Below are positions 1,309 through 59,793 of a DNA stretch of 64,000 nt, piece after piece. The translations under genes were made by a program, and so were the position numbers. Below the pieces are notes generated by a model that saw only the letters and a list, made by a program, of their open reading frames with translations, was not told where the DNA came from and did no database searches. How positions within the stretch are numbered: the first letter of the stretch is position 1; each line of letters begins with the position of its first letter. Origin of the DNA: Vairimorpha necatrix (lineage: Eukaryota); the NCBI GenBank assembly GCA_036630325.1, contig CP142731.1:124001-188000 (forward strand), written 5' to 3'.

Positions 1309-4084
1309 TATCAAGTTTCAATTTTTTACGGATATTTATACTTTAAAGCATTATACATGAATTACTTCACTTCTTTTAGATTTGATTTGCATGTAATCGA
1401 ATTCGTCAAATTGTAAGCATCTAATTTAAATAATTATAATTACACTAAATGAACATTCCAAGTAAAAGTTTTGATTTTATTAAAGAAATTATTTAATTAT
1501 TTATGATCAAAGTCGTTATTTGTAAAAAAAACTCGTTATATATTTCACCTTCCATAAAATTTTAACGCCTAACTTTGTTTTTTAAAATTGAAAAATAAGA
1601 ATATAAAAACCTGTAGTTATTATATTTATCATCTTACACGATGTGTGTTGATCTCTTTTTAATATTCTCTTTTATCAAAATGAGTTTTTTTCGTTTTATC
1701 ATAAGGAACTGTTTTTTTATATTTTCTAGATCAATAATAAAAAAAGGAAAATTTTAGAGAATATCTAAATATAAAGTAGAAACTATTTGCTAATAACCTA
1801 TATTCAAAGTATTTTTGGTTTTTAAATCCACTGATCTATTAAATCTCCGTAAATTTATAATTTTATAATAATTATGATGTTTTTGTTTGAATAATTCAAC
1901 ATTTAAAAAATAATGTTCCCAATTAAAAATCCGAACGTCTAAAAAATTGTTCAAAAATATTATTTATGTTCTGTCTATGAAAAAGAAGAATTTTTAGAAT
2001 TTAAAAAGTTTAAATAATTTTCTGATTGGTATATTAAATTATCTAGACACGAATTTTGTTTTAATAAGTAGATTTGTACATTTAAACTTTCTTAGGTCAA
2101 TTAGTATGCTGTAAACCATTTATGATTTTTTTTGTAGGAATCTTTCCCGCATCTCCAAAAACAAAAAAAAAATGAAAACTTGTCTTTGTCTCACTAAAAT
2201 TTTTACATCTGAATACTTAACATATCATTTGTAAATATTGTATTTCCCATCATACTTCGTCATCAAATATTTAAAAAATGTAAATAAATCAGTTACTTTT
2301 TTTTTACCTAATATATTATTTATCAGACATTGACAAAAGGAAACAACAAATTAATAATGTAGAAATATTAAAGAAGTAACCTCTATGGTAAATTTAAATA
2401 TAATCATTAACTTTGTTAGATCTTTTTGGAATTATTAAATTATATTGAGATCATATACGATTTGTAGGGAGCAATGGCTTATAGGTAAGGAACAAAAATT
2501 GTAAAAAAATATTCACGGTACGATTTTAACACGACTAAATTTAAAAACATTTTAAAAAGAAATTAATTGCAAAACAGATGGCACAAATGATACTTAAGTC
2601 AGTATAATTATGGTTATCATTATATTATTCAGTCAGTTTTTAACAAGTTTAACAATAATTTTTTATTAGCGGCTCTTCTGGTATGTGTCAGCTTTCCATT
2701 GGTATAGACGCTAAAAACTTTGCTTAGTCTGGTATTCCGAATATCATTTAATAGAATTAATTTATGAAGCTATTATCGGGTACATTTTATAATTTACCCC
2801 CCCCACTGCCACACTTCATATTTAATTCCACCATCTTCTAGCTACCTCTACTATCTTTCTTATTTCCAGATCCATTTTCACCGAGTCCCAGCAGGTGTTC
2901 AAAGGAGATGCTCTTTAGGGTTTTCTTTATAATTCTCATTTGGATGTAACCTTCGGTACTAGTCGATAGGCAGATGGCATTAATATAATTGCTATGGTAT
3001 TTTGTCACAATTCCGTCCTATTTCATGACGTATGGTATTATTTCAAATAGCGTAAGATATATTCATAAAAATTTCCCTCCATATTTCAGTTTCTCCTCCT
3101 ACAAGTAAAAAAATATTTTATCCTTAGAAGGGTACGATAATGACGACGAAGACGAAATATACACCAAGTAACATTAACCAAATTCACAATATTATTTTAG
3201 ACACGCTTCTCGGGGGTGGATACCACACTTAGATTTCTCTTCTGGTTGCCCATGCCATTCTTTACAAAAATAAATATCTATAAGAAAAAAATCTTAGAAA
3301 TATTTTTCTCAAAAAATGTTTAAATAAAAAATTGATTTTCTTGACACATAGATAATATCATAAATTCAATCAAATTAAGAACGTAACTTTGTAAATCTTT
3401 ATAAAGTTATCATGAATGGGTAGTGGAGGCAGTATTAATTAAAGATGTCTGTTCAAATTAAATATGATGTTATATCTAAAAAGAAATTAGAAAAGCGTTA
3501 TGGTGGTGCTACCAGGGATGAGGGGATAGTAAGTAATAAAATAAAATTCTCAACCTGCAATATATATTTATGAGAATTATATTTATTTAATTGCCCCGGT
3601 GGCCGGATGGGTTGATCCTAGGCTTTAAATAAGGCGTAATGTTTAGACATTTTGTTGTTTGGGCTGTTGTAATTCTCTTATCATCTTGAGATAATTGTTG
3701 GGGTAAAAGAAAAAATTTTGGGAAATAATATTTAAGGCAAATAAAATAAAATTGAAAATTTATTTGAACAATATTAGAACTACAATCTACGTACTTGTAA
3801 GAATAAAGCTCTTAAACGTAAATAAAAGAAAAAATTTAATGATAAAGGAAATTTTGTAGCATCATGTCTTCGTATGAAACTGATCCCACTAGCTTTTTGA
3901 TTTTTTTTTAAAAGGGTTTCAAGGAAGAGAAAAAAGTCAGTCTTAGACAAGATTCTCTAAATAATATAACTTTATCGTTTAATTTAGTTTAAAGATAGAT
4001 TTTTAATAAATATAAAATTGTTTCGCAATCAATAGATTAAATGACGCTCGATAATATATGTAAAATGAAATAAATTTTAATAAA

Positions 4085-27329: not shown

Positions 27330-28019
27330 ATTAGTAATTATTTTTAAAAGTAAATTCTTCAAGCCATGATCAAATATTCACACGCTTTACTCCGTGCTAT
27401 TTGGTCATTTCTAATTCTATATAAACCAAAAATTTATAATGTTAAAAGTATGTAATCCTGTTTCATTAGTACTTCCTATTGATTGATTTACAATAATGTG
27501 TTCGCGTTATAGATTTGCTTCATCGCCGGGATAACTAGATTTACCATCAGAAATAATTACTAATCCTGGTAAGACTCTATTTCCTATTATCCTTTTAGAG
27601 TATTTATCTTTCGATCTGCAACTTGTAATATACAAATTTTACTTCTATTTACAGCTTCTAACATCCTAATATCCATAAAGAATCTTTCTTCATCATCAGT
27701 TCCGAATGGAACTTTTTTGGTGTCTCTTTTATACAGTCCATCAAACTGAGTTTGAACTTTCGATCCTCAGATTTTGCAATCGATTTCCAATTTCTTTCTA
27801 ATTTTTCCCATCAATTTAAGCTTTATTTTTAAGAAAGTGTCATTTGACACACCCGTTAAATCATAATCAATTTATAATTGCTGTTACAAAGGACCAAGAA
27901 TCCAACAAAAAGATAAATTTCGAATGGTAACGTAATGCCGAGTAAAAAGCCGTATTTTGCTTGCATTTTCGTGTAGAACACCCATAAAGTAATCTTTACT
28001 ATATTTTTTTCTAATAATA
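27330..28019 (-). pseudogene. Decayed Merlin (ISXO2/IS1595-like) DDE transposase, central and C-terminal part
   Basis: Minus-strand translation with stops/frameshifts gives LLYGCSTRKCKQ, KI*GSKVQTQFDG (KIGG..V.xDE-like), RVLPGLVIISDGKSSY, EHIIVNQSIG, GLHTFNIINFW (HTNxIExxW-like) and HGVKRVNI*SWLEEFTFK, the ordered motifs of ISXO2/Merlin transposases. Confidence 0.8.
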
Positions 28020-28477
28020 CTAGCGTATGCTTTCCCGTTTTTGAAAACGGGATCTAAATGTTTAGTTTTTTTTATATGTCCAGTCACAGTGAATTTTGTT
28101 AAGTTTCCATTTTGGGATGATAGAATTTGATAGGATGAAGACATCATTTTCAAAAATACTTTTTAGTAACATATAAGGAGTAAAGTTGAGTTAAAAACAC
28201 TTATGAGTCTCATTGAGAAAATTTTAGGGACTTCTAAGCTCAATTTTTGACACTTACATTCACAATCTTTATTTGTCAGATCTTTTTACAATTTTTCGTA
28301 GAAGGGTCAAATAAATTCTAAAAAACGATTCTGACGATATTTTGGAACTGAGTTTAACAAAAATAATAATCAAAATTAAAAAGTATTAACTAATAACATA
28401 CACACTTAGAATAGTCAAATTATCGCTATAAATCTATATATGATATTTAAATAACATAGAAAGCCTAATATATATAG

Positions 28478-28526
28478 TGTGATATATTTGTATAATTTCT
28501 ATCCCCCATTATGATAAATAAAGACA
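28478..28526 (+). repeat. 5' LTR of element 1 (49 bp)
   Basis: Identical to 31648-31696; contains CCCCC, ATG (28511) and AATAAA. Confidence 0.95.
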
Positions 28527-31500
28527 TGGGGGCGATACCGAATCGTCAGTTTTCAAGTGTGGACTGTGGTCTAGAGGCCAAAAAGTTAATAAAGGAAGTT
28601 AGAAGAATAATGTATAGGTTGGAGATGGAGGAAGTAGAAATCAGTTTGTGGAAGCAGAGAATATTTATGGAAGGAAGTGAAGAAATAAAAAATTTCATGG
28701 TAGAAAGAATTAGTAAAGAGGACGAATATTATAAAATAATTGAGAAATTAGAGGAGGAAATATGTAGAGAAGAAAGAACTAAAAAAGAAGAAGAAAATAG
28801 GAGAGAACTTATGGAGGTCATAGCTGAGAATGTTAGAGAAACTGTGAGAAAAGAAATTCAAGAGAAAGATTTAGTTTTAAGGAGTACAGTACAAGAAATA
28901 AGAAATAATAGGAATTGTTTTAATTGTGGTAAATTTGGCCATATGGCTAGGAACTGCTATTTAGGAAGGAACAATAATCAGAAAAATAATAAAAAGTTTA
29001 ATAAGTACTTAAATTTAGACGAAAACCAAAGTTGTAGTAGCAGTAATGATAATAAAGAATATAAACCAAGTGGAAAGACAAAACGAGTTAAGTTAAAGGA
29101 ATGTAATAATAGTGATAGAAGACATAAAGAAAGAATATATGCGAGAAATAAAGAGACGAAAAGAAGATTACTGAAGAGGGAATTTACGTTGGAAGATCTC
29201 AAAGCGGAATATGAAGAAGTTTTTAAACAAGGAGATGAGGTTATAAGTTATTGTACATTAGAGAAGTGTAAGATAGATACTCCAGAGGGTAAGAAGATAG
29301 TCAGAAAGGGACAGACGATCCCACAGGCTTTGATCAAACAGACTGAGGAATATATTAATGATTTAGAAAATAGAAAAATTATAAGAAGATCGTCTTCGGA
29401 ATGGCGAAACCCAATAAGAGCGATACTTAAACCAAGTGGTGAAGTAAGAGTAGTTAGTAATTTTATAGGGTTGAATGATTTAGTCGAGAAAGACCCGTAT
29501 GAGCTAACGAATATGAGAGAAATAATAAGAGCTACGCAAGGGTCGATAATATTTACTGTTGTTGATTGCAAAGAAGCATTTTACCATTTTGAAATCGAAG
29601 AAAAAGATAAACATAAGACGGCGTTTGAATTTAATAAAAAAGTTTACGAATGAAATAGTATGGTGATGGGATACAAAAATTCCCCACAGATACTACAGAG
29701 AACGAAGGATATGATTTTTGAAGATTTGCGAGGAAATGGTGTTGAGGTATACATGGACGATATAGTAATACATGCCAACAATAAACGTAAACACGATGAA
29801 TTAGTAATATAGGTTATAGAAAGAATTAAGAGAAATAAAATGAAATTAAATATTGGGAAAATACAGTTTAGACAAGCGGAAGTAAAATTATTAGGTGTGA
29901 CGCTGAATGGAATAGACATGACGGCCGACGAAATAAAGAAAAATGAAGCTTTGGAGTATCCGGATCCAAAAACTTTGACGGAATTGAGGAGGTTTCTAGG
30001 ATTGACTGGGTGGTTCAGACCATTTATAAAAGATTATGCCGGGCTGACGTTGAAAATGACAGATAGTTTGAAGAAAAATGGCAATTCGTGGAAATTTACG
30101 GAAGAGATGAAAGAGGAATTTACTAAAATGAAAAATGTGTTAAGAAATATGGGAAGACTAAGATTACCGGACTATAATAAGGAGTTCATACTAAGAACAG
30201 ACGCTAGCAATTTGAGGTTGGGTGCGGTGTTACTTCAGAAGAATGAGAATGGGTAATGGGTTGCTATACAATGGGCATCTAAAAAGCTAACACCTACCGA
30301 AATAAGATATGGAATATCAGAAAAGGAAATGCTTGCGATATATTGGGGCATTGATAAATTTAAATACGAGTTAAGAGGTAGGAAATTCAAGATAAAAACG
30401 GATCACAAAGCACTGGTGGAGATAAGAAATAAACCGTTTTTTAATAATAACAGAATAAATCGCTTAATCGAGAAGATACAGGAATATGATTTTATCGTTG
30501 AATATAAAAAACCTGATGAGATGGTGGTAGCAGATGCGTTGAGTCGAATAAATATGGAAGAGGATATTAAAGAAATGAAAAATAAAGAGCGAACAATCAA
30601 GCAAACAGAAGGTAAATGGAAAGCACATGTTTCTTCCGAGAATGGAAAGCAATATTGGCAATTTGACTCAGGACGTAAAGTTGAAATACCACCTGAGAAT
30701 ATAAGGAGACAATTAATCCAAGAATATCATGAAAAAGTAGGCCACAGATGCATGACAAGTGTTTATTATGCAATGAGAGAAGAATACTATTGGCCAGGAG
30801 TAAAGAAAGAAATAAACGAGGTTATAAAACAGTGTCAGAAATGTCAGATATATAACAGGAAAAATATGGGTGGTTGTGAATTTGTAGATACATCGAGATA
30901 CTTAGAGAAGGTTGCATTAGATTTGATAGACTTTAGAAATGAGAAGAAATATGTTTTAGTTGCTATCGATTATTTTACACGTAGAGTATGGGGAGTAGTT
31001 ATAAATAACAAGTCAAGTAATAATGTTGTTGGATTTTTGAAAAGATTATGTGAGCAAGGGAAGAAACCAGAAGAAATTATTACAGATAACGGGAAAGAGT
31101 TTATTAACGTGGAATTTAGAAAATTTTGTAGAGATCTCGATATAATACACCGACAAGTAAGTATAGAAGCGCATAGAAGTAACGGAAGAGTAGAGTGTGT
31201 TATAGGAACTTTGAGAGAAAGTATTTTAAAGTCGGATGCGAAAACTTTTGAAGGTAAAGTATATAAAAGTATCGATGTATATAATCAGAGCTATCATACG
31301 GGAATAAAATGTACACCATTAGAAGCGACTGAAGATAAAACTGGAGACGTAATGCTTGAAAATAGCCCTATAGGGAAATATTGTAATAGGTTTGGAAAAG
31401 GAAAGATCGAAAAATTTAGCAAAGGTCAATTGGTAAGAATAGCTAAACGAGAAAATTTGGCAGGTGTTAATAAGTATGAAAAAGGAAGATTTTTGGATAC

Positions 31501-31624
31501 AGGAAAAATTGTTGAAAAGTGTGGAAAAGATTCTTATATTGTAAAACTTAGTAATGGTAGGCTTGTGAAGAAGAGACATTATGATCTGAAGGGTATGCTT
31601 GGGGTAGATGTGAAAATTAGATGA
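28511..31624 (+). pseudogene. Gag-Pol polyprotein of element 1: one reading frame with three in-frame stops
   Basis: ORFs 28511..29653, 29840..30256 and 30329..31624 share one frame; stops TGA 29651, TAG 29810, TAA 30254. Zinc knuckle CFNCGKFGHMARNC, RT YMDD (29750), RNase H DAS/EKE/TDH, integrase HHCC and D(LDLID)-D(TDNGKEF)-E(NGRVE). Confidence 0.93.
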
Positions 31625-31647
31625 GACTAACCGTCTTGAGGGGGGGA

Positions 31648-31696
31648 TGTGATATATTTGTATAATTTCTATCCCCCATTATGATAAATAAAGACA
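31648..31696 (+). repeat. 3' LTR of element 1 (49 bp)
   Basis: Directly after the PPT and followed by TSD TATAG. Confidence 0.95.
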
Positions 31697-34600
31697 TATA
31701 GTTTAAAAATTTTAAAACCACAAAAAATAGGGGTAAAAAATTAAATAAAATTCTTTTATATATATGACTAGCGTATGTTTTCCCGTTTTGAAAACGGGAT
31801 CTAAATGTTTAGTTTTATAATATGTCTTTCATCCTTAAATTTTGTAAAGTTTCCATTTTGGGATGATTTAATTTGACAGAGTTTAGACATGATTTTTAAA
31901 AATACTTTTTAGTGACATAGAAGAAGTAAAGTTGAGTTAAAAACACTTATGAGTCTCAATGAAATAATTTTATGGAATTCTAAGCTCAATTTTTGAAACT
32001 TATATTCAATTTTTTTTTGGTTATTGTTTTTGCAATTTTTCGTGGAAGGGTCAAATAAATTCTAAAAAACGATTCTGACAATATTTTGGAACTGAGTTTT
32101 ACAAAACAAAGAATTAAAATGGAAATGTATTTACATATAGTACACGCACATATGATAGTCAAAATCCTTCAATGAGTTTATATTTGATATTATAATAAGT
32201 TAATAAGACCAAAATATACAGTGTGGAAATTCCAAATTCACAAAAAAGAGGGGTAAAAAATTAAATAAAATTCTTTTATATATATGACTAGCGTATGCTT
32301 TCCCGTTTTGAAAACGGGATCTAAATGTTTTGTTTTATAATATGTCCCGCCTCGGTGAATTTTGGTGAGTTTCCATTTTGGGATGATTGAATTTGATAGG
32401 ATGAAATCATCTTTTTCAAAAATACTTTTTAATAGCATATTAGGAGTAAAGTTGAGTTAAAAACACTTTTGAGTCATAATTAAATAATTTCGGGAACTTC
32501 TAAGCTCAATTTTTGACACTTACATGTAAGATCTTCATTGGTTATATGTTTTTGCAATTTTTTTAGAAGGGTTAAATAAATTCTAAAAAACGATTCTGAC
32601 GATATTTTGGAACTGAGTTATACAAAAATAATAAATCTAATAAAAATGCATTAATATATATTATACGCACTTACAATTATCAAATTTAAGCACTGAGTTT
32701 AAATTTGATATTACAATGACACAATAAGCTATAATAAGAAGTTTAGAATTTTTAAAACCACAAAAAAGAGGGGTAAAAAATTAAATAAAATTCTTTTATA
32801 TATATGATGATGACTAGCGTATGCTTTCCCGTTTTGAAAACGGGATCTAAATGTTTTGTTTATGGTATGTATCTCGTTATATTTTTTTTTAAATTGCCAT
32901 ATTTGGTTTGAAAAGAAAGGGGAAATGCAATTTTTAACAACATTAAAATTATTTCCAATGCGAAACTTGAATATGGATTTCAAATCAAATTATTCTATAA
33001 AATCCAATTTGATAACTTTATTATGTTTATACGTTTAAAATTTGACACTTACATTCAACTTTTCTTTAGTTAATATTTTTGTCAATTTTTTCTAGAAGGG
33101 TTAAATAAATTCTAAAAAACGATTCTGACGATATTTTGGAACTGAGTTCTACAAAAATAATAATTAAAACAAAAAAGTATCAACTTATAACATACACACT
33201 TACGATAGTCAAAATCCTTCAATGAGTTTATATTTGATATTACAATGACGCAATAAGTTATAATAAGAAGTTTAAAGTTTACAAAATCATAAAAAAGAGG
33301 GGTAAAAAATTAGATAAAATTCTTTTATATATATGACTAGCGTATGCTTTCCCGTTTTGAAAACGGGATCTAAATGTTTAGTTTAATAATATGTATTTCC
33401 CCTTTTAATCTTGTTGAGTTTGGATTTGGGGATGAATGAATTTGAAAAGGAGGCAACATGATTATGAAAAATACTTTTTAGTAACATTAAGGAGTAAAGT
33501 TGAGCTAAAAACATTTAATAATTATAATGAGATAATTTCGTGAACTTCTAAACTCAATTTTTGACACTTTTATTCAACTTTTTTTTGGTACATGTTTTTG
33601 TGAATTTTTTCTAGAAGGGTTAAATAAATTCTAAAAAACGATTTTGACGATATTTTGGAACTGAGTTTTACAAAAATAATAATATGAATTAAAATGCATT
33701 AACATACAGTACACGGACCTGTGATATTCAAAATCCTCCTTTGAGTTTATATTTGATATTTAAATAAGTTAATAAGATTAAAATAAATAGTTTAGAAATT
33801 TTTAAACCACAAAAAAGAGGGGTAAAAAATTAAATAAAATTCTTTTATATATATGACTAGCGTATGCTTTCCCGTTTTGAAAACGGAATTTGAATGTTTG
33901 GTTTCATATTATGTCCCGCCTCGGTAAATTTTGGTAAGTTTCCATTTTGGGATGATTGAATTTGACAGGATGAAGACATCTTTTTCAAAAATACTTTTTA
34001 GTGACATAAAATAATTAATTTGAGTTCAAAACACTTATGAGTCTCATTGAAATAATTTTGGGAACTTCTAAGCTCAATTTTTGACACTTACATGTAAGAT
34101 CTTCATTGGTTATATGTTTTTGCAATTTTTCTAGAAGGGTTAAATAAATTCTAAAAAACGATTTTGACGTTATTTTGGAACTGAGTTTTACAAAAATAAT
34201 AGTTAGAATAAAAATGCATTAATATATAATATACGCACTCACAATTATCAAATTAAAACGTTAAAATTAAATTTGATACTATTTTAACGTAAAAGGATCA
34301 AAATGTATCGTTTAGAAATTTCATAATCACAAAAAAGAGGGGTAAAAAATTAAATAAAATTCTTTTATATATATGACTAGTGTATGCTTTCCCGTTTTGA
34401 AAACGGGAATTGTATGTTTTGTTTCATGATATGTTCCTTTTCGGTAAATTTTGTTAAGTTTCCATTTTAGGATAATGAATTTAAAAAAGGGAAAAAATGT
34501 TTTTTAAAAATAATTTTAACAACATATAAGAAGTAATGTTGAGTTAAAAACACTTAAAACCCATAATTATATAATTTTGAAAACTTCTAAAGCTCAATTT

Positions 34601-34898
34601 CAACACTTATTATTCAAATTTTTTGATTCTAATGTGTTTGGAATTTTTTCTAGAAGGGTTAAATAAATTCTAAAAAACGATTCTGACGATATTTTGGAAC
34701 TGAGTTTTACAAAAAACAATAATAAAAATAAAAAGTATTAACTAATAACATCCACACCTAGAATAGTAAAATTATCGCAATAAATCTATATATGATATTT
34801 AAATAACATAGAAAGCCTAATATATATAGTTTAGAAATTCCAAAGTCACAAAAAATAGGGGTAAAAAATTAAATAAAATTCTTTTATATATATGATGA

Positions 34899-35035
34899 TT
34901 ACAAGCTTTGCTATAACGTATCACAAGAACCACATGGTCAGTTAGATTAATGATTTTAGTCTCTATCATGTAGTCTTTACACGAAGCAAGACTTGAAAAC
35001 GAAAAATTTCTCAAATTCTAAAAAAAAATTGTCAT
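34899..35035 (-). pseudogene. N-terminal part of the Merlin transposase split off by the Helitron array
   Basis: CCCAA-ATG at 35035; …KDYMIETKIINLT… then PCGSCDT (CxxC) in a shifted frame, which pairs with the CSTRKC motif on the other side of the array as in Merlin N-terminal Cys motifs. Confidence 0.55.
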
Positions 35036-35583
35036 TTGGGACTTTTTTTTAAAAAAATAAAAATTATATATTTTTGCATTTCTCCGTTTTGGTGCCTCAT
35101 GTTTTCGGGGCAGAAAAACGGAGAAGTGTCGATAATTCTAAATGCCGCCCCTTCCAGTGACTGCAAAAATGTTTAAAATGGACATGCTTTTTTATTATTA
35201 TGTTATTCTATATACTGCGAAGGTAATTATCGAGGTGTTCTTTGGAAAACCTTGTAGAATATGTGTTGCCATTTCAATCTTTCAGGTATGCATTAGTGTT
35301 CTTTACATTAAAAAGCAAATAAATACTTTTTAATCTAGATAATTGTCGAATGTATCATATATCAGTTTCGGACTGTTGATTGGTACTACAAAACATATGA
35401 TAACATCCATAATGTGTTATTTTAGATCACGCATAGATATAACAAAATCATCTAAATACAAAATAATAAGAACGTTCCAAAGAACTAGCACGTAACAAAA
35501 ACGACGATTGCTGAAGTCAACTTTGCAAGTATAATTGAAAGAATGTCAAGACGGTCTTAAAATTAAAAATTGAGTTTTGGTAT

Positions 35584-35653
35584 TGTCGTATCCTTCTATA
35601 AATATTATATATTTTCACCCCCATGCAATTCGTAAATAAAGGAACATTCGACA
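35584..35653 (+). repeat. 5' LTR of element 2 (70 bp)
   Basis: Identical to 39060-39129; contains TATAAAT, CCCCC-ATG (35623) and AATAAA. Confidence 0.95.
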
Positions 35654-38600
35654 TGGCGACAGCGATAAAAACTGTTGGCTGCTTCAGTGGAAAGAAGGAA
35701 GAGGATATAAATACATGGTTGCGTGACACAACGTTCACGGCGAGGGTTATGGGACTGACCGAAGATCAGACCGCCAGACTTATCTGCCTGAGTCTACGGG
35801 GGCCAGCTCTCTCATGGATAGCAATGGCATTTGAACGGGTGTCAGAACTTGATCTGGCAGAGGTTACTAAGAGTCTAAAATTGAGATTTTACAGTTCACA
35901 GAAAACTCTGGCCACTCTAGACGAGTTTGTTAAACCGCAACAATTTGGCAACCTAGAGGCTTTCATAGACTTCTGCAGGAAAGGAAACTCACTTATAGAG
36001 CAACAAACAATGGAGTACAAATCAGTCAGCCTCATAGTAATCAAGAAGTCTCCTTCAGTCCTCAAATCAATTCTTTATGATTTTGCTAGACAATGCCAAG
36101 ATTGGAGTGAATTCCTGAGGCGCACAGAGGAAGTTTCTTGGATAGCATTCCCTATGAAAAGTAACACGACTAATACGGACGAGACACTAGATAACAGGAC
36201 TTTGAAGGTCGCACCATCGAAGAAGGGAAATATACCCTACACCATAGAAAACTACAAGATCAACAGCTGTTTCACTAACCCTTGCTACATAAACGTAGAA
36301 TTCAATCGTAAACGACATCGAGCATTAATTGATACCGGAGCTGATGTCTCCCTGATACCCGCAAGAGTCCTCGAAGGGACAAATATCAGATTTACCAGAT
36401 CTTCAACGATCATACGAGCAGCATCAGGGACACCATTGGAGATTACAGGAAGATGTCTAAATATCAATTTTAGGACGGAAAACACTTCAATTACTTTCAG
36501 CCCTTACGTCACAGAACGGACACCGGACTACATAATCTTAGGAGTTGACGCTATACGAACGAACCCCATATTACTGGAACAACTGATCAGAAAATTCGCC
36601 AATACAGTCAAGAAAGGCTCACTGATTAACAAAGTCAATTACATCTCAATCGAAGAGAAATACCATGACATGTTCAAAACTGAAATTTCAGAGCTTACAC
36701 TTTGTAACATGGGGAAACATCAAATCGAGACAACAGTAGCGAAGGCAATTTACCAGAAAAATGGAAAGATCCCTCTGCACTTTGAAGAGGAAATCACACA
36801 ACAGATCAAGAAGAACTTGCAGTTGGGCGTAATAAGAAATAGTAGGAGCCCCTGGAACAGTAGAGTTGTTCCGGTAACGAAACCTGATGGGTCGATCAGG
36901 CTCTGTATAGATTACAGAGAGCTCAACAAGATAACAGTCAAAGATAAATACCCCCTCCCACGAATTGATGAAATTCTCGACGATCTAGCTGACGCTACTA
37001 TCTTTTCGACATTAGATGCTACGTCGGGATATTATCAGATAGCCCTTGAAGAAGTAGACAAGGAGAAGACAGCATTCAGCTGGAGAGGAGGACATTATGA
37101 ATTTAACAGGATGCCGTTTGGGCTATGTAATGCCCCTGCTACTTTTCAGAGAACTATGGATAAGATTTTTGTGAAAGAAAACAGAAAATTCGTCATACCA
37201 TACTTGGATGACATTATTATCTATTCTAAAAATCACCAGGAACACCGTGAACACTTGGAAATCATATTGGGTAAGCTTAAGGCAGCAGGAATCGCACTTA
37301 ACAGGAAGAAGTGCCACTTCTTCAAAGAAGAAATTAAAATTCTAGGGAATATAGTAACAAACAAGACGATCAAACCGGACCCAGAGAAGGTCAAAGCCAT
37401 AAACGAGTATAAGGAGCCGACGAATATTGCTCAACTACGGTCGTTTCTTGGGCTCATAAATTACTGTAGGGAGTTCATCCGTAACTTATCAGCGATAGCA
37501 GCCCCTCTCTACGAACTGTTTAAAGGAGAGTCAAAGCGAAGTGTTAAGAGTATTTCTCTCAGCAAAAAGGAGAAACGGGCATTCGAAGATCTAAAGAGAC
37601 TTCTCACAGAAGAGACAATAAGATACAAGATTAATCTCAGGAAACCGTTTATACTGACTACGGATGCGTCAGAGCAGGGAATAGGCGCGATCCTCTCACA
37701 GATTGGAGATGATGGGAAGGAGCACTTCGTAAGTGCATTCAGCAAAAGTTTAGAGAAAGCCCATAAGAACTACTCTACAACAGACAAAGAACTCTTGGCC
37801 GTTGTAAAAGGCATCGAGAACTATAGACACTACCTCCTGGGTAGAGAGTTCATATTGAAGACGGACCACAAAGCGCTGACTTATCTATGGGAAGCTAAGA
37901 ACCCTACCAGTAGATTGCTGAGGTGGGCAATGAAGTTGCAGGAGTATGCATTTCAATCAACCTACATAAAAGGAGAGGTTAATGGAGCAGACGGGTTAAG
38001 CAGACAAAACCCGACAGAGAAAGATATAAATATCATCGAAGCTACAGGACCAAGCGATGAAGACAGACAGAAGATCTTAGAATCCTACCATCTAGACGTT
38101 GGACATGCTAGCGCTAGTACGATGAGCTTCATGATTTCACAGAGGTACAAATGGGCAGGAATGCATAAGGACATCAAGGAACACGTAGAAAAGTGTAAAA
38201 CGTGCTTGAAATCGGGATACCCATTACGAAACACAAAAAACAAAGTTATACGATCAGAGAGGCCGAACCAAATATGGGTGATAGATCTCATAGGACGCAT
38301 ATGCGACACTTCGGGTCAAAACAGCTTCATATTCATTGCTATTGACCACTACTCTAAATGGGTCGAGACGGCTGTTATTAACTATAAAACAGGGTCGAAA
38401 ATAATGGGATTAATCCAGCAATTGATTATCGAGAAACACGGCATTCCAGAAAGAATCTTGACTGACAACGGGCTAGAATTTATAAATTCTGACATCAAAG
38501 ACCTGGCCGAAAAGAATGGTATTGACTGGCAATACAGTTCACCAGAACATCACGAAACTGTAGGCGCAGTAGAAAGAGCGAATCAGACGTTAATGAAGAT

Positions 38601-39048
38601 ACTAAATAAAATTACAGATTTCGGAAGGGTAAGCTGGAAGAACAAGCTTCCAGAAGCCACGAGATGCCTCAACCTGTCTTATAATCGGAGCATAGGAACA
38701 TCGCCGTTCATGTTAAGGGAGAATAAATTGCCGATGCTGTCTGTAGACAAAGCGCTAGACAAGGAAGAAGTGACATTCTCAGCGGAGGAAACGAAGAGTA
38801 AGCGCGATGAAAACTTCGAAAAGTACAATAAAGCAATCGTGAAAGGGAAAGTAGAGGTGGTGAAAAAGCTAAACGTGGGCGATAAAGTTTTAATATATCG
38901 TGAGACCAAAAGCGGGAAGTTCAAGTGCAATTGGGAAGATGGATACGTGATCACAGAAATAATTTTACCCGATGCCTATGTGGTAAAAAAGAATGGAAAA
39001 GTATACAGGCTTAACAAAACACGAGTTAAAGCAGATACTTCAATTTAG
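35623..39048 (+). CDS. Gag-protease-RT-RNaseH-integrase polyprotein (1141 aa, uninterrupted)
   Basis: Protease LIDTGADVS; RT LCIDYRELN, MPFGLCNAPATFQR, YLDD; RNase H TDAS/KELLAV/TDHKAL; integrase HHCC, IDLIG, TDNGLEF, VERAN. Confidence 0.98.
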   Translation: MQFVNKGTFDMATAIKTVGCFSGKKEEDINTWLRDTTFTARVMGLTEDQTARLICLSLRGPALSWIAMAFERVSELDLAEVTKSLKLRFYSSQKTLATLDEFVKPQQFGNLEAFIDFCRKGNSLIEQQTMEYKSVSLIVIKKSPSVLKSILYDFARQCQDWSEFLRRTEEVSWIAFPMKSNTTNTDETLDNRTLKVAPSKKGNIPYTIENYKINSCFTNPCYINVEFNRKRHRALIDTGADVSLIPARVLEGTNIRFTRSSTIIRAASGTPLEITGRCLNINFRTENTSITFSPYVTERTPDYIILGVDAIRTNPILLEQLIRKFANTVKKGSLINKVNYISIEEKYHDMFKTEISELTLCNMGKHQIETTVAKAIYQKNGKIPLHFEEEITQQIKKNLQLGVIRNSRSPWNSRVVPVTKPDGSIRLCIDYRELNKITVKDKYPLPRIDEILDDLADATIFSTLDATSGYYQIALEEVDKEKTAFSWRGGHYEFNRMPFGLCNAPATFQRTMDKIFVKENRKFVIPYLDDIIIYSKNHQEHREHLEIILGKLKAAGIALNRKKCHFFKEEIKILGNIVTNKTIKPDPEKVKAINEYKEPTNIAQLRSFLGLINYCREFIRNLSAIAAPLYELFKGESKRSVKSISLSKKEKRAFEDLKRLLTEETIRYKINLRKPFILTTDASEQGIGAILSQIGDDGKEHFVSAFSKSLEKAHKNYSTTDKELLAVVKGIENYRHYLLGREFILKTDHKALTYLWEAKNPTSRLLRWAMKLQEYAFQSTYIKGEVNGADGLSRQNPTEKDINIIEATGPSDEDRQKILESYHLDVGHASASTMSFMISQRYKWAGMHKDIKEHVEKCKTCLKSGYPLRNTKNKVIRSERPNQIWVIDLIGRICDTSGQNSFIFIAIDHYSKWVETAVINYKTGSKIMGLIQQLIIEKHGIPERILTDNGLEFINSDIKDLAEKNGIDWQYSSPEHHETVGAVERANQTLMKILNKITDFGRVSWKNKLPEATRCLNLSYNRSIGTSPFMLRENKLPMLSVDKALDKEEVTFSAEETKSKRDENFEKYNKAIVKGKVEVVKKLNVGDKVLIYRETKSGKFKCNWEDGYVITEIILPDAYVVKKNGKVYRLNKTRVKADTSI

Positions 39049-39059
39049 GGGGGGAGAGG

Positions 39060-39129
39060 TGTCGTATCCTTCTATAAATATTATATATTTTCACCCCCAT
39101 GCAATTCGTAAATAAAGGAACATTCGACA
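39060..39129 (+). repeat. 3' LTR of element 2 (70 bp)
   Basis: Directly after the PPT and followed by TSD GGTAT. Confidence 0.95.
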
Positions 39130-41772
39130 GGTATTATAGCATACTAGAACAAAATAAAGAATTAAAAAATGATCATATTGTAACCTTACAACATTAACCT
39201 TACAATTTAAAATTTTACAAGAAAAATATGTTATTTGCAATACTAATGCATACATATAATTTATAGAGTGGTCGTTTTATCAACATAAAAAACCGTGTTT
39301 TTTTTTATTAAAATTAAATAAAAAGTATGTGGGAGGCACTTTCAATCTTAGAATTCGTTTATTTATAGATGTTTTTATTTTAATAATCTCAAGACAAAAT
39401 GAGACTCATGACTCTTGAAAAAAATTAAATGGGTATAAGGTTTGCCAAGTGTACTATCTTCAGCCTTGTAACGTAAAATTTGTTTGTTTAATTTTTTTTA
39501 ATTGTGTTTTGTTCTTTTTGAGGTTTCAAGGTTAGTTTTCTTTCTTGGTTTCTCTATTCAAGAATGCATTTGTTTAAATAATTATAGATGACTCCTCGTG
39601 GATATTTGACATTTAAGAAGCAGTTGTCAAATGAGTTTCTTGGCAGGCCTATATCACATAAATGTGTTTAACAATGATTTGACAAAAGTCAATTGTTTTC
39701 ATGGTCGCTCAATAGACATATCATCACACAAGATATTCCTTCGCAAGAAAAAAGTCTCGATCTTCGCCTAGGCTTTACTCGACATATTATTTCTAAAAAT
39801 CTAAAAAATTGTATGACTTATTTTATTGCAAAGTTTTTTATTAAAAATGATTTATTTGCTTTTAATTTTCCAGGTTCACCTAAATGTCTGGATATAGACC
39901 AACGTACTGTAAATATTTAATTTTTTTCTCATTTTATTAAATCGCAGTAGAAATGTATTTTATATAAGAAAAATAAACATTAATATATATCGCGTCTAGA
40001 ACAATTAAAAAAAATTATGTTATTTAAGACAATTTATACGAGCCAGAAGAGATATTTTCTCACAAGATTTATAAACTTATATCCTGCATCTCCAACATCC
40101 TATAATTGATCTCGATTTAATAAAAGTCGAGCATTGAGGCCAAATGATATTTCTAGATTGTTGAAAACTCATAGGGCCAAAGTTACGAGATTGCTAATCT
40201 TCTTTATCTACTTTTCGAGACATTTCACCGAATGTCATTTAAAATACGCAGCCATTTTGCTTTAGTAGTAAATATGACTTGTTTTTAATAGAGTAAAATT
40301 GGGGTTATTTTTAATAATACTTGGGTTGTCTTCTAATCTCCAACAAATCTCATTGTGACTTCCAACAGCAAGATTCAAGAAACAACTTAACGTCTTAGTA
40401 ATTACGTTTCTGTATTCCTGGCACAAAAAACAATATATGAACAGATTATAATGGTTCTGTTGGTCGCTATCTTCATTAATTATCTTAAGATTCTTTCAAA
40501 GACATATAAGTAAACAAATCGTATATTATACAATTTAAAACAATTAAAAAGTTCGGCCTTTTACAAATGCTTTTAAAAATTTTTAGATTTCGAACAAGAA
40601 TATACAATACATAAGTTAATACTCTTGACGTTTTTAACGCACTTTCTAGAAATTATATTTATATATATATAGTCATTTTATATGTTTACATCCATTTCAA
40701 TCTTATGTGTTTGGTTTTTAGATAGATTTGTTTGGCTTTGTTTTCAAGAATAAACTAATTTATTCAGATAGTTCATATTTACAAAAATGTTTCATAATAT
40801 AAAAAGGACATAAAATATTTTTTACTATCATGTGAAAGACTATTATTTATATTAAGAAAAAGAAAAACCATATAAAATTGATTTAGTTAAGTTTGATGAT
40901 GTTTTAATATACTTCCTAGATATACTTTGTTTCGTTGTTAATTCTGAAAATTACGCTATTCTTCGATTTCTCAAAAGCTTTATTAAATTTCTTTCAATGG
41001 CAATTTGTGATATAATAAGATGTACACTTGATATGCACAAATATTCTAACCTCGTATACGTTAAAGTGTTATTATATCATTATACCATCTCATTTAAGTA
41101 TTTGCGGCTTTAGAATATAATTAAATTATTTTATTTTCATGTCAAATATATGAAAAAAAGATCAATGTTCTTAATTGTATTTGAAATGCTTATAAATCGT
41201 CTAAACAAATGTTTTGATTTTTTTTATACATTTTAATTAATTAAATGTAGATAATAATATGTAAAGCAATTACATATAATATCGTAGTTAAAAGTATATT
41301 TAAACTACCTTTTTGGCAATTATAGAACATGATAATTTGGATTTATAATGTTATTAACACAAAAGTTGCTTTAACCCCTTGTTTACTAACGATAGTATTA
41401 AAACGACAACTTTTTATGATTTACAAATCATTTACACGTTTTTACTATCTAAAACAACTCTTAATTTGGTTTGTAAATTACATGCTTTATAATAATTCTA
41501 TTTGTTCAAACTAAAAATCTAATATGTACTCATTTTTAAAACTTTATATTCACTCATTATGCATATGCCAAAATATTGGATAAGTAGCAATAATTGGGGT
41601 TTTCTATCACAGTTATTTAATATATTAAAGAATAAAAATAAACTCTAATTTTTTAATGGGATGAAAGTATATCAAATAAGAAATATTTCATTGGCTATTT
41701 TTTTTTGTTTGTTTGTTTGTTTCATCTCAATTATAAATAAATATTTATAAATAATTGTTTATAAACAAAGGT

Positions 41773-58242: not shown

Positions 58243-59793
58243 TTATTTTATATCCTGAAATGTTTTTTTATAAGATTCATTAATTTCTGCATTTAGCTCA
58301 ATGTGGTCTTTTATTCCTTCAATAAAATTAAGTAAATATTTAGTACCATTGTCGTTGAGATTTTCTTTATTCTTATTGTAGTACAAAATTGGGAATAAAA
58401 AAATATTAAAATCAAAATTTAAATCATTTGTGTCCCCCGTGGGGGACACAATCTCATAAACTTCTTTTGTTTCTTTAAGCTGCCTTATAATTTTGTTGCA
58501 TTTGTAAACAAATTCGATCTGTGAGTAATCAAAATCCTTTTCCGGAACATTTTGAGACATGATCATGTTCTCTTCAAGATTAGAAGTACAGATCAATTTG
58601 TCTAAGCATTTTTCTTTTACTATATTCTCTGTTATAAGGTAATAATAAAGTACTTGTATAGACTTGGGTATTTTATCCGATATTTTCAAATCTTTGACCA
58701 ATAAAGTCTGTAAATCTGATTTATCGGGATTTTGATTAGTTAATAATTTATATGAGATGTTTTTTTCTAAAAATTTCACCTCATTTTTTTTAATTTTTTC
58801 TAAAATTTTTACGATATTTTTACAATTAAATAATAATTTGTAAAATTTATCGGACAATCTTTTCCCAAATATATTTGTAAAATCAGATGGTACAACTTCG
58901 CTATTTTTAAAAAATGAAACTTTACCTTCTTCTTTCATTACTGGATGAAAATCTATTAAAACAAATGCTGTATAAAATGAATTAATATATTTTAAATAAA
59001 TAGGATTATTTTTAGAAAGTTCTTCTAAATAATTATCAAAATCTCTTGTTTTTACAATAGTAATAATATTTTCTGGTATAAAATTGTCTGCGTATTCCGG
59101 GATAGTTGGACAAAATTCGCAGCCCAGTGCAAAAGCCAAAATTCTAAAATTTTGATTAGTTAATTCAAAAGCTTTCATAAAATTTTTTTTATTGAAAGCT
59201 GTGAACATAAAATGTTCAGAATTTTCCAAATGAAAATCAGTTATGATTTTTTCAACACCTTCAAAAATCAAAGCATCAGATTTACAAAATCCGTAATTGC
59301 ACATATTATTTTGTAAAAAATACGCAATTTGTGCCGTAGCGGAATAAGGAGCTCTTACTGCATCATGACCAAATTGTTTTAATAATTTGTTTATTGGTGA
59401 AACAACATCTTCAAAATCAAGTAAATGTTTCCAATTTTGATTGCAAATTTTTTCTTCATTTTTTTTATAAGCTTCAAATCCCGTTTTTAATTTGTCAAAA
59501 TCAGTTGTTTTTGAATTTGAAATTGGTTTTTCAAAATCCAAACCATCCCAAACAAAAAGGATTTGGATTTTTGATAGATTTGACATTTTAATTAATCTTA
59601 AAACTGGTGCCAAAAATCTTTCGTCGCATTTGCTAATAAAAAAATCGCTCATGTTACCAGTGACAACATATTTTCTTAAGAACCAAAAACCGTCTATTGC
59701 CAAAATTGAATCTTTTAAAACAGAAACTTGTGCTTTAGCAATCCAAGTGTTTAAAGATGATTTCTTTATTGTTTCTATTCCTCTTATAGGCAT
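58243..59793 (-). CDS. MKT1: Mkt1-like protein (XPG/FEN1-type PIN fold, probably catalytically degenerate)
   Basis: MPIRGI, LAIDGFWFLRK, LFVWDG, RAPYSATAQIAYF (APYEADAQ-like with acidic residues lost, as in Mkt1), LALGCEF-like H3TH region. Confidence 0.7.
   Translation of the reverse strand: MPIRGIETIKKSSLNTWIAKAQVSVLKDSILAIDGFWFLRKYVVTGNMSDFFISKCDERFLAPVLRLIKMSNLSKIQILFVWDGLDFEKPISNSKTTDFDKLKTGFEAYKKNEEKICNQNWKHLLDFEDVVSPINKLLKQFGHDAVRAPYSATAQIAYFLQNNMCNYGFCKSDALIFEGVEKIITDFHLENSEHFMFTAFNKKNFMKAFELTNQNFRILAFALGCEFCPTIPEYADNFIPENIITIVKTRDFDNYLEELSKNNPIYLKYINSFYTAFVLIDFHPVMKEEGKVSFFKNSEVVPSDFTNIFGKRLSDKFYKLLFNCKNIVKILEKIKKNEVKFLEKNISYKLLTNQNPDKSDLQTLLVKDLKISDKIPKSIQVLYYYLITENIVKEKCLDKLICTSNLEENMIMSQNVPEKDFDYSQIEFVYKCNKIIRQLKETKEVYEIVSPTGDTNDLNFDFNIFLFPILYYNKNKENLNDNGTKYLLNFIEGIKDHIELNAEINESYKKTFQDIK

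Follow-up and report, generated by a model that had tools for sequence, protein, structure and literature searches.

How small can the long terminal repeat (LTR) of a working retrotransposon be, and can a repeat of a few tens of base pairs hold a promoter motif, a start codon and a polyadenylation signal at once? The question is raised by a 64-kb stretch of DNA from Vairimorpha necatrix, hereafter called the window, in which an earlier note had described two elements, each with perfectly identical tiny LTRs, a 5-bp target site duplication (TSD), a primer binding site (PBS) and a polypurine tract (PPT). We re-found the repeat pairs and the boundaries of both elements (Table 1), which measure 3219 bp (element 1) and 3546 bp (element 2). 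For element 1 the repeat tool reported a 50th base, a T that is common to the PBS and the TSD, and the LTR is 49 bp.

Table 1. Features of the two elements, in window coordinates.
Feature	Position	Strand	Remark
Element 1, 5' TSD TATAG	28473..28477	+	same 5 bases at 31697-31701
Element 1, 5' LTR, 49 bp, TG..CA	28478..28526	+	exact repeat pair
Element 1, putative PBS TGGGGGCGATACCGAATC, translated M-G-A-I-P-N	28527..28544 (extent inferred)	+	adjoins 5' LTR
Element 1, polyprotein frame: CCHC knuckle, RT, RNase H, integrase	28511..31624	+	without protease, broken
Element 1, PPT GAGGGGGGGA	31638..31647	+	directly 5' of 3' LTR
Element 1, 3' LTR, 49 bp, equal to 5' LTR	31648..31696	+	exact pair
Element 1, 3' TSD TATAG	31697..31701	+	copy of 5' TSD
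Element 2, 5' TSD GGTAT	35579..35583	+	copy at 39130-39134
Element 2, 5' LTR, 70 bp, TG..CA	35584..35653	+	exact repeat pair
Element 2, putative PBS TGGCGACAGCGA, translated M-A-T-A	35654..35665	+	adjoins 5' LTR
Element 2, intact polyprotein, 1141 aa: Gag-like N-terminus, protease, RT, RNase H, integrase	35623..39048	+	
Element 2, PPT AGGGGGGGAGAGG	39047..39059	+	overlaps stop codon; directly 5' of 3' LTR
Element 2, 3' LTR, 70 bp, equal to 5' LTR	39060..39129	+	exact pair
Element 2, 3' TSD GGTAT	39130..39134	+	copy of 5' TSD

Both elements are genuine Ty3/gypsy (Metaviridae) LTR retrotransposons, as had been proposed, and both belong to microsporidia-specific clades. Each has direct repeats of the form TG..CA, a TSD of 5 bp (4-6 bp being expected), a PPT and an integrase that follows the reverse transcriptase (RT), and TGG... 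starts immediately after both 5' LTRs. In a FastTree tree, from a run that warned of composition bias and of one long-branch join (L087 with L155), elements 1 and 2 were placed in two separate clades with 100% support each. The best protein matches came from Vairimorpha, Nosema, Pseudoloma, Pancytospora and Enteropsectra.

Other identities were considered and rejected. A Ty1/copia (Pseudoviridae) element needs its integrase upstream of RT, and the integrase is C-terminal in both elements; a TRIM or other non-autonomous miniature would be non-coding and shorter than about 1 kb, and about 97% of either element is taken up by one polyprotein frame. Chance repeats were likewise dismissed, the members of each pair being identical and accompanied by TG..CA, PBS, PPT and TSD: with up to three mismatches allowed, neither LTR sequence has more than its two copies in the window, and none of 100 shuffles of either LTR gave any match. 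Searches of the 64 kb with ARAGORN returned no tRNA gene, Rfam gave no match in the whole window, and the sole match in G001 to the complement of the PBS of a relative described below (L081) was that PBS itself.

Element 2 is an intact, recently mobile copy. Its polyprotein, with protease at residues 223-313, RT at 419-576, RNase H at 647-775 and integrase at 812-975, shares 99% identity with a V. necatrix protein from a cluster of 10. An empty-site allele is preserved in a contig of run X2, in which 35578 is followed, after two letters, by 39132 and which reads AATAT where the window has GGTAT, and runs X1 and X2 contain loose ends at 35584, 35635 and 39097 that correspond to other flanks or variant LTR ends. 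Element 1, with the domain order RT, RNase H, integrase, is a dead copy from a protease-less clade: its 3114-nt frame contains three in-frame stops (29651-53, 29810-12 and 30254-56), no retropepsin match was found in it, and none of the 26 members of its clade matched any retropepsin family at E values up to 1. The coding fraction of about 97% given for both elements in the earlier note is accurate for element 2 (3426 of 3546 nt, an intact ORF) and, because of the three stops, describes a dead copy in the case of element 1; of the two elements, only element 2 looks autonomous, element 1 being broken and without a protease. Element 1 has a paralogous empty site, its flanks plus one copy of TATAG being equal to a neighbouring repeat unit at about 34790. 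The window contains a ~520-bp repeat array, which TRF missed because the period exceeds its limit.

Relatives were found with LTRs of similar and of greater length. A full-length relative with 64% protein identity to element 2 (L081) has identical 75-bp LTRs of the same layout (TGTCGTA, an AT-rich stretch, CCC, ATG, AATAAATAAA and GACA, followed outside the LTR by TGGCGAC), and its PBS differs from that of element 2 at one base. In the clade of element 1, the basally placed L177 has identical 58-bp LTRs in which AAATAAATAA is followed by CCC, then 20 nt, and then the terminal A that meets the TG of the PBS. The LTR layout that had been described as common is present in both window elements and in L081, and it is not universal, because L177 has no ATG inside the LTR and carries AAATAAATAA 5' of the CCC. 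Sister to the group of element 2 and L081 is L082, whose 176-bp LTR has a longer U3 and ends in the same module (GGG/CCC, ATG, 13 codons with AATAAA, and AACA), the 12 bases after the LTR being identical to the element 2 PBS, TGGCGACAGCGA; another related element, L111, has an LTR of 268 bp. In the presumed 3' LTR of L172, which is perhaps 38 bp long, AATAAA abuts the first ATG. LTR lengths among microsporidian-type elements are 58, 70, 75, 176 and 268 bp, with 93 and 113 bp in unrelated gypsy elements; the 80 metagenome loci kept and the 11 viral-collection loci, which are 29-43% identical and apparently come from other hosts, served for length comparison only. Matching TSDs are absent in L081 and L177, which may be due to chimeric flanks in metagenome contigs, and no LTR pair came out when L173, L199, L172 and 15 further incomplete loci were searched for repeats. 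The comparison shows that miniaturisation has come about mainly by a cut of U3 to about 25-40 nt, with retention of a module that runs CCC-ATG-...AATAAA...-CA and is followed by TGG.

The signals packed into this space are ordered alike in the two window elements. The LTR of element 1 contains TATAAT (LTR positions 14-19), CCCCC (26-30), ATG (34-36) and an in-frame AATAAA (40-45), and that of element 2 contains TATAAATA (14-21), CCCCC (35-39), ATG (40-42) and AATAAA (52-57), again in frame. Immediately 3' of the 5' LTR, the putative PBS of element 1 opens with TGGGGGCGATACC.... The second in-frame ATG that the earlier note had derived from the LTR-terminal A and the TG of the PBS is present in both elements, 15 nt downstream of the first in element 1 and 30 nt downstream in element 2. 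Microsporidia have 5' UTRs shorter than 7 nt, a CCC-like motif just 5' of the start codon and a stochastic use of AAUAAA, according to PMC2803860, and the reading of the LTR motif as a host-style CCC agrees with these published signals and with the window itself, where 13 ORFs of at least 150 aa lie outside the elements and 10 of them have a CCC at most 17 nt upstream of the ATG, as opposed to 96 of all 2111 ATGs (4.5%). The first ATG of both window elements and of L081 has a CCC 0-3 nt upstream (3/3), and none was found within 17 nt of the second ATG. AATAAA is present in all four micro-LTRs, compared to 18% of size-matched random stretches; it lies 4-13 nt from the LTR end, so that cleavage may fall in flanking DNA and may thereby depart from the textbook U3-R-U5 scheme.

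Alignments of the N-termini bear on the choice between the two ATGs. An extension before the PBS-encoded methionine is present in 11 of the 17 rows of alignment A1 and 14 of the 23 rows of alignment A2 that include the N-terminus, whereas an ATG picked at random from the window is preceded by another in the same frame, at most 22 codons away and with no stop between, in only 17.6% of cases; as the rows are related, the binomial significance of this excess is overstated. The extensions are short, variable and poorly conserved, and they are missing in the other rows (6/17 and 9/23). The PBS-encoded start M-A-[ST]-[AT] is conserved in A1, the M-G-A start of element 1 is common to four relatives in A2, and two alignment rows (P0073 and P0142) are without the second methionine. 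To judge from these sequences, translation may start mainly at the second ATG.

We consider it probable that these findings have a joint explanation, in which the two microsporidian Ty3/gypsy elements have had their LTRs miniaturised to 49 and 70 bp and rely on a host-type promoter, a start at an ATG in the LTR and the AATAAA of the 3' LTR. The residual U3, with its TATA-like box and CCC motif, would act as a host-type core promoter, and transcription is predicted to start a few bases 5' of the LTR ATG. Gag translation would begin at this ATG, or at the second one, and would pass through R/U5 and the PBS, so that the PBS would code for the conserved Gag N-terminus. The in-frame AAUAAA would be ignored at the 5' end, which could rest on its weak, stochastic recognition in microsporidia and its nearness to the cap, and used in the 3' LTR, with cleavage predicted at, or just past, the LTR end. 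From the predicted start and cleavage positions, R plus U5 would amount to about 19 nt in element 1 and about 31 nt in element 2, and the minus-strand strong-stop DNA would be of that size.

An alternative that we judge rather unlikely places the transcription start downstream of AATAAA, in the last ~10 nt of the LTR, and makes the ATG at the LTR-PBS junction the true Gag start; the 5' UTR would then be a few bases, R would be shorter than about 10 nt, the first ATG would be incidental, and the polyA signal, now in U3, would be present only at the 3' end of the RNA. L177 has exactly such an arrangement, the abutting AATAAA and ATG of L172 fit it, and so does the conservation of the PBS-encoded M-A-[ST]-[AT] or M-[AG] across both clades beside extensions that vary or are missing; microsporidian 5' UTRs of less than 7 nt (PMC2803860) and the existence of R regions of 10-11 nt (PMC3601003) also speak for it. 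However, in the window elements and L081 the CCC stands directly 5' of the first ATG and not near the second; upstream ATGs that are in frame and not cut off by a stop occur much more often than expected by chance; and P0073 and P0142 do not have the second methionine.

Much less probable is that the LTRs provide integrase ends and repeats only, expression being due to read-through from host promoters or to trans-acting elements, with CCC, ATG and AATAAA as by-products of an AT-rich composition. Transcription overrun and multi-gene transcripts are indeed known in microsporidia (PMC2803860), and element 1, being broken and without a protease, would need trans factors anyway. Yet the frequencies of CCC and AATAAA given above exceed those of other ATGs and random stretches, and the module has persisted between elements whose proteins are 64% identical. 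Moreover, by its established mechanism, reverse transcription would remake two identical LTRs only from an RNA with both ends inside the LTRs. We give next to no credence to a last alternative, that the short repeats are private deletions of LTRs of normal, long size, or else repeats due to chance or assembly, rather than functional design. Relatives with longer LTRs do exist (L082 and L111), but the window pairs are identical, bounded by TG..CA and accompanied by PPT, PBS and TSD, and the shuffles gave no match; in the run contigs, other sites have variant LTR ends of comparable length, and an empty site is seen too; and of the 16 tabulated contigs with full-length clade-B ORFs, 14 are only 27-100 nt longer than the ORF. 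The 75- and 58-bp LTRs of independent relatives from other sources also argue against deletion derivatives, which the earlier note had named as a possible refutation, and this alternative is largely refuted. We conclude that the tiny LTR is inherited within lineages and is not a private deletion.

Known microsporidian Ty3/gypsy elements, from Nosema bombycis and as consensus families from Anncaliia algerae (Parisot et al., 2014, PMC4202319), are alike in their single Gag-Pol polyprotein, a fused single ORF (PMC13174016), and in forming microsporidia-specific clades. The main texts of PMC4202319, PMC3614468, PMC3486916 and PMC10759460 give no LTR lengths or anatomy for such elements, and our literature search found no paper with microsporidian LTR lengths or sub-100-bp LTRs, although some may be listed in the 2006 N. 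bombycis paper or in the supplements of PMC4202319. LTR length is a continuum, and the micro-LTRs are the extreme of a known kind and not a separate class, those of 49 and 70 bp ranking with the shortest seen in elements that code for their own enzymes. In Ty1 of Saccharomyces cerevisiae, a copia-type element with an LTR of ~330 bp, translation of GAG begins within the 5' LTR and the ORF continues across the PBS. The window elements would share this start and read-through, but are of gypsy type and would do so with a whole LTR of 49-75 bp. The Mag lineage likewise consists of compact gypsy elements with short LTRs, that of Bombyx mori Mag reportedly being 77 bp, whereas the elements described here belong to microsporidian clades, have shorter LTRs (49-75 bp) and carry start codon and polyA signal inside them. 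Mosquito Mag-like LTRs are 119-304 bp (PMC3286476). In retroviruses and the plant elements Sire and Retrofit, R can be as short as 10-21 nt and still serve for first-strand transfer (Sire 10 bp, MMTV 11, RSV 21) and the TATA box lies close to the polyA signal (PMC3601003), but their LTRs are several hundred bp, with long U3 and U5, compared to a U3 of about 25-40 nt and a U5 of perhaps almost nil in the window elements. TRIMs are small LTR elements too and often escape standard finders, but are non-coding and shorter than 1 kb (10.1101/137141), whereas the window elements code for a full polyprotein in 3.2-3.5 kb.

A broader reading, to which we give slightly less than an even chance, is that the 49-75-bp LTRs of microsporidian gypsy elements represent the smallest size at which an LTR can work, a design that is widespread across two clades or more and under-annotated. 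Such an LTR may consist of a host-type core promoter of ~25-40 nt and ~20-35 nt of R/U5 that are also coding, the PBS may encode the N-terminus of Gag and the polyA signal may be read as Asn-Lys, and one of the clades may do without a protease. If true, this would set a concrete lower bound on the necessary contents of an LTR, show a retroelement control region adapting to a host with near-zero UTRs, and offer a minimal testable system, in which 49-75 bp accommodate a promoter, a start codon, a polyA signal, the integrase ends and the homology for strand transfer. LTR finders with a 100-bp floor would be blind to these elements, as the earlier note had pointed out and as the common use of LTRharvest with -minlenltr 100 (10.1101/137141) bears out, and both the LTR-element content and the activity of such elements in microsporidia would be under-annotated. 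Elements missed at this minimum are then annotated as ordinary 'endonuclease' or 'reverse transcriptase' genes, and these are the names that the V. necatrix protein matches carry.

Direct reading of the region and a repeat search confirmed the two Ty3/gypsy elements with identical 49-bp (element 1) and 70-bp (element 2) LTRs: with up to three mismatches allowed, each LTR sequence was found at exactly two places in the window, so that there are no solo LTRs there, and 100 shuffles yielded no match. In both elements the LTR termini are TG..CA, the flanks carry 5-bp duplications (TATAG for element 1, GGTAT for element 2), a candidate primer binding site (PBS) starting with TGG lies directly 3' of the 5' LTR, and a G-rich polypurine tract (PPT; GAGGGGGGGA in element 1, AGGGGGGGAGAGG in element 2) lies directly 5' of the 3' LTR. 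The LTR layout described in the earlier note, with promoter motif, start codon and polyadenylation signal, proved exact in both elements, including the in-frame AAT AAA and a second in-frame ATG made of the last A of the LTR and the TG of the PBS.

Features of the two elements (window positions) and of related loci (positions in their own contigs)
Feature	Position	Strand	Description
Element 1	28478-31696	+	direct reading and repeat search
Element 1 5' LTR	28478-28526	+	49 bp, identical to 3' LTR
Element 1 frame	28511-31624	+	three in-frame stops
Element 1 3' LTR	31648-31696	+	49 bp
Element 1 LTR layout	LTR positions		TATAAT 14-19, CCCCC 26-30, ATG 34-36, AATAAA 40-45, GACA end
Element 2	35584-39129	+	direct reading and repeat search
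Element 2 5' LTR	35584-35653	+	70 bp, identical to 3' LTR
Element 2 ORF	35623-39048	+	1141 aa, single, intact
Element 2 3' LTR	39060-39129	+	70 bp
Element 2 LTR layout	LTR positions		TATAAATA 14-21, CCCCC 35-39, ATG 40-42, AATAAA 52-57, GACA end
Tandem array	28016-28477 and 31697-34900		~7 units of ~520 bp, 65-88% alike
L082 LTR copies	68-243 and 3853-4024		differ just 5' of start codon: GGAGGG ATG vs GGGCCC ATG
L119	259-7429		unrelated 7-kb gypsy, ~30% identity, 49% G+C; clean 93-bp TG..CA LTR with PPT and PBS
L172 3' end (element 1 clade)	2714-2770		PPT GGAGGAGGGGA, then possible 38-bp LTR, TG..CCCC..AAATAAATG..AACA

The boundaries of both elements are those of a mobile unit. Element 1 is inserted in the ~520-bp tandem array, and its flanks joined with one TATAG correspond to the neighbouring unit at ~34790; each array unit carries a near-perfect palindrome, TTTCCCGTTTTGAAAACGGGA (28032, 31779, 32299, 32825, 33348, 33868 and 34388), and the array, whose period is above the limit of TRF, was not called by that tool and had no Rfam match. 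Element 2 has been recently mobile: in a contig from the public sequencing run X2, two letters separate 35578 from 39132; this is the empty site, with AATAT where the window has GGTAT. Loose contig ends at 35584, 35635 and 39097 in the public runs place the element 2 LTR beside other flanks, and show variant LTR ends that nonetheless terminate in ..GACA. One contig of a second run, X1, reads PPT-LTR-PBS-gag, with 39053 joined to 35584 (window 38916-39053 + 35584-36761) and a polypurine run one G shorter, and could represent tandem copies, a one-LTR circle or an assembly collapse of a multi-copy element.

Element 2 encodes protease, reverse transcriptase (RT), RNase H and integrase in gypsy order (Pfam), and its best match, from Vairimorpha necatrix, is 99% identical over the full length and belongs to a cluster of 10 sequences, followed at 40-57% by proteins of Nosema granulosis, Pseudoloma, Pancytospora, Enteropsectra and Nematocida and many metagenome proteins. 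Element 1, related to ~45 proteins of ~1000 aa (35-63% identity; including V. necatrix, N. granulosis, Enteropsectra and Pseudoloma), contains a CCHC knuckle, RT, RNase H and integrase, and no protease was matched in it by Pfam; the two polyproteins are 29% identical over 734 aligned residues, in an alignment that begins after the element 2 protease. The earlier note had counted 3114 of the 3219 nt of element 1 as coding, and this holds for the span and fails for a working frame, since the three in-frame stops make it the span of a dead frame in a dead copy. Among the 26 aligned members of the element 1 clade (alignment A2), none matched the retropepsin Pfam families at E <=1 or contained a plausible D[ST]G[AS] motif, and judging from these sequences a protease appears to be missing throughout the clade; its members may use a host protease or that of another element, or may need no processing. 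Many of these protease-less members keep intact ORFs of ~1000 aa. The G+C content of the window is 25.8%; the V. necatrix genome has 28.3% G+C, ~50% repeats, four pseudo-haplotypes and 109 TE genes according to a genome paper whose accessible text makes no mention of LTRs (PMC10759460).

The signals in the LTRs are host-like. The statement that microsporidia use short UTRs and a CCC near the ATG agrees with the accessible part of a published account, in which 5' UTRs are <7 nt and a CCC-like or GGG-like motif lies immediately 5' of start codons (Peyretaillade et al., PMC2803860), and with the window itself, where CCC occurs <=17 nt 5' of the ATG in 10 of the 13 non-element ORFs of >=150 aa versus 96 of all 2111 ATGs (4.5%). 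CCC stands 0-3 nt 5' of the first ATG in element 1, element 2 and L081, a related locus in other DNA with almost the same context (ttttaaccc ATG) as the host ORF at 58243-59793, and AATAAA is present in 4/4 micro-LTRs compared with 18% of random stretches of equal size.

The conserved N-terminus of the polyproteins is encoded by the PBS, and reads M-A-[ST]-[AT] in the element 2 clade and M-G-A, M-A-N-T, M-A-T-A or M-V-E-N in the element 1 clade; four types of candidate PBS were distinguished (TGGCGACNGCG, TGGGGGCGA, TGGCNAACAC, back-inferred from M-A-N-T starts, and TGGTGGAGAAC). An extension before the PBS-encoded Met was present in 11 of the 17 rows with an N-terminus in the alignment of element 2 relatives (A1; 10-22 aa) and in 14 of 23 such rows in A2 (2-6 aa), whereas an upstream ATG within 22 codons, in frame and with no stop between, precedes only 17.6% of random window ATGs; the small p-values for the extensions are only indicative, the alignment rows being related. 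The second Met is missing in two alignment rows, and the extensions often include N-K (AAT AAA). Against this stand the poor conservation of the extensions and their absence in some rows, with none in the related locus L177. Our reading of this pattern is that the first ATG is usually part of the transcript and hence has to remain in frame; the second could serve as a start as well, in some lineages perhaps as the sole one.

A profile of A1 (element 2 and 18 relatives) was used to fetch the DNA of related loci. In L081, 64% identical to element 2 over its full length, the two LTRs are identical, measure 75 bp and repeat the order of signals (TGTCGTA, AT-rich, CCC, ATG, AATAAATAAA, GACA, then TGGCGAC), and L177 has identical 58-bp LTRs and the candidate primer site TGGTGGAGAAC, its start codon being formed by the last LTR A plus TG and its ORF ending 18 nt inside the 3' LTR. 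The LTR of L082 is 176 bp long, with a longer U3 than the micro-LTRs, and the same module makes up its last ~55 nt, comprising GGG (5' copy) or CCC (3' copy), ATG, 13 codons including AAT AAA, and AACA followed by TGGCGACAGCGA. The motifs of these two copies match the GGG-like and CCC-like alternatives of microsporidian genes (PMC2803860). The LTR of L111 is at least 268 bp, those of the circularly assembled contigs L190 and L087 are estimated at ~150-200 bp from PPT and start positions, and the 5' LTR of L172 would lie beyond the contig end. In a FastTree tree of 44 polyproteins, of which only well-supported groupings were used because composition bias and one long-branch join were flagged, element 2 groups with L081 and L082 in a clade of 13 rows (support 100), element 1 belongs to a second clade, of 11 rows (support 100), in which L177 is basal, and a third contains L111 and L190. 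Two separate clades thus have micro-LTRs, and in that of element 1 they are found at both ends. The elements could have been deletion derivatives of copies with long LTRs, a case raised in the earlier note, but the recurrence of micro-LTRs in relatives (75 bp in L081, 58 bp in L177) argues against it, and the miniature LTR is an inherited lineage trait.

To place these lengths, we scanned 158 of 201 loci for repeat pairs, leaving out 2 exact duplicates and 41 loci without an open frame of 600 aa. A pair flanked the ORF in 56 of the 158; 39 pairs touch a contig end and 17 are internal, the latter on 16 distinct contigs, as L188 is L081 again, with lengths of 27 (doubtful), 58, 75, 93, 113, 113, 176, 180, 223, 253, 255, 265, 281, 305, 325 and 493 bp. 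The 58- and 75-bp pairs belong to microsporidian-type elements, and the 93-bp LTR of L119 means that sub-100-bp LTRs are not confined to microsporidia; 49-75 bp is the low extreme among the elements compared here. Compactness across the element 1 clade has indirect support, based on our reading of how such contigs assemble: the excess over the ORF is 27-100 nt in 14 of the 16 full-length-ORF contigs tabulated (163 and 261 nt in the others) and 56 nt in the unit of element 1 itself. The Bombyx Mag LTR is 77 bp long, and in Ty1 GAG starts inside the LTR. The LTRs of mosquito Mag-like elements measure 119-304 bp (PMC3286476, Table 1), in contrast to the 49 and 70 bp of the window elements, and LTRharvest is widely run with -minlenltr 100 (10.1101/137141). 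LTR lengths of microsporidian elements did not turn up in literature searches and are not stated in the accessible text of PMC4202319, whose supplements, like the 2006 Nosema bombycis paper, may list short LTRs, nor in that of PMC3614468, PMC3486916, PMC10759460, PMC13174016 and PMC12471100. The micro-LTR finding is real, well supported structurally and of moderate surprise.

Under the established reverse-transcription scheme, from which the following expression model is drawn, both ends of the RNA have to lie inside the LTR. With a transcription start near the CCC, U3 would measure ~30 nt (element 1) or ~39 nt (element 2), leaving ~19 and ~31 nt, respectively, for R plus U5, so that minus-strand strong-stop DNA would be of that size. 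The distance from the end of AATAAA to the LTR end is 4 nt in element 1 and 13 nt in element 2, and cleavage would probably occur at or beyond the LTR end, with almost no U5 left. As an R of 10-21 nt has precedent in Sire, MMTV and RSV (PMC3601003), strand transfer with an R this short is plausible. Microsporidia are reported to recognise AAUAAA weakly and stochastically, with transcriptional overrun (PMC2803860), which may account for bypass of the signal at the 5' end.

Many contigs with microsporidian-type retrotransposons lie in bins G001-G005, which were deposited as bacterial MAGs; L081, L082, L087, L111, L172, L177 and L190 are from G001, which gave 34 matches. These contigs look like eukaryotic contamination of prokaryote bins.
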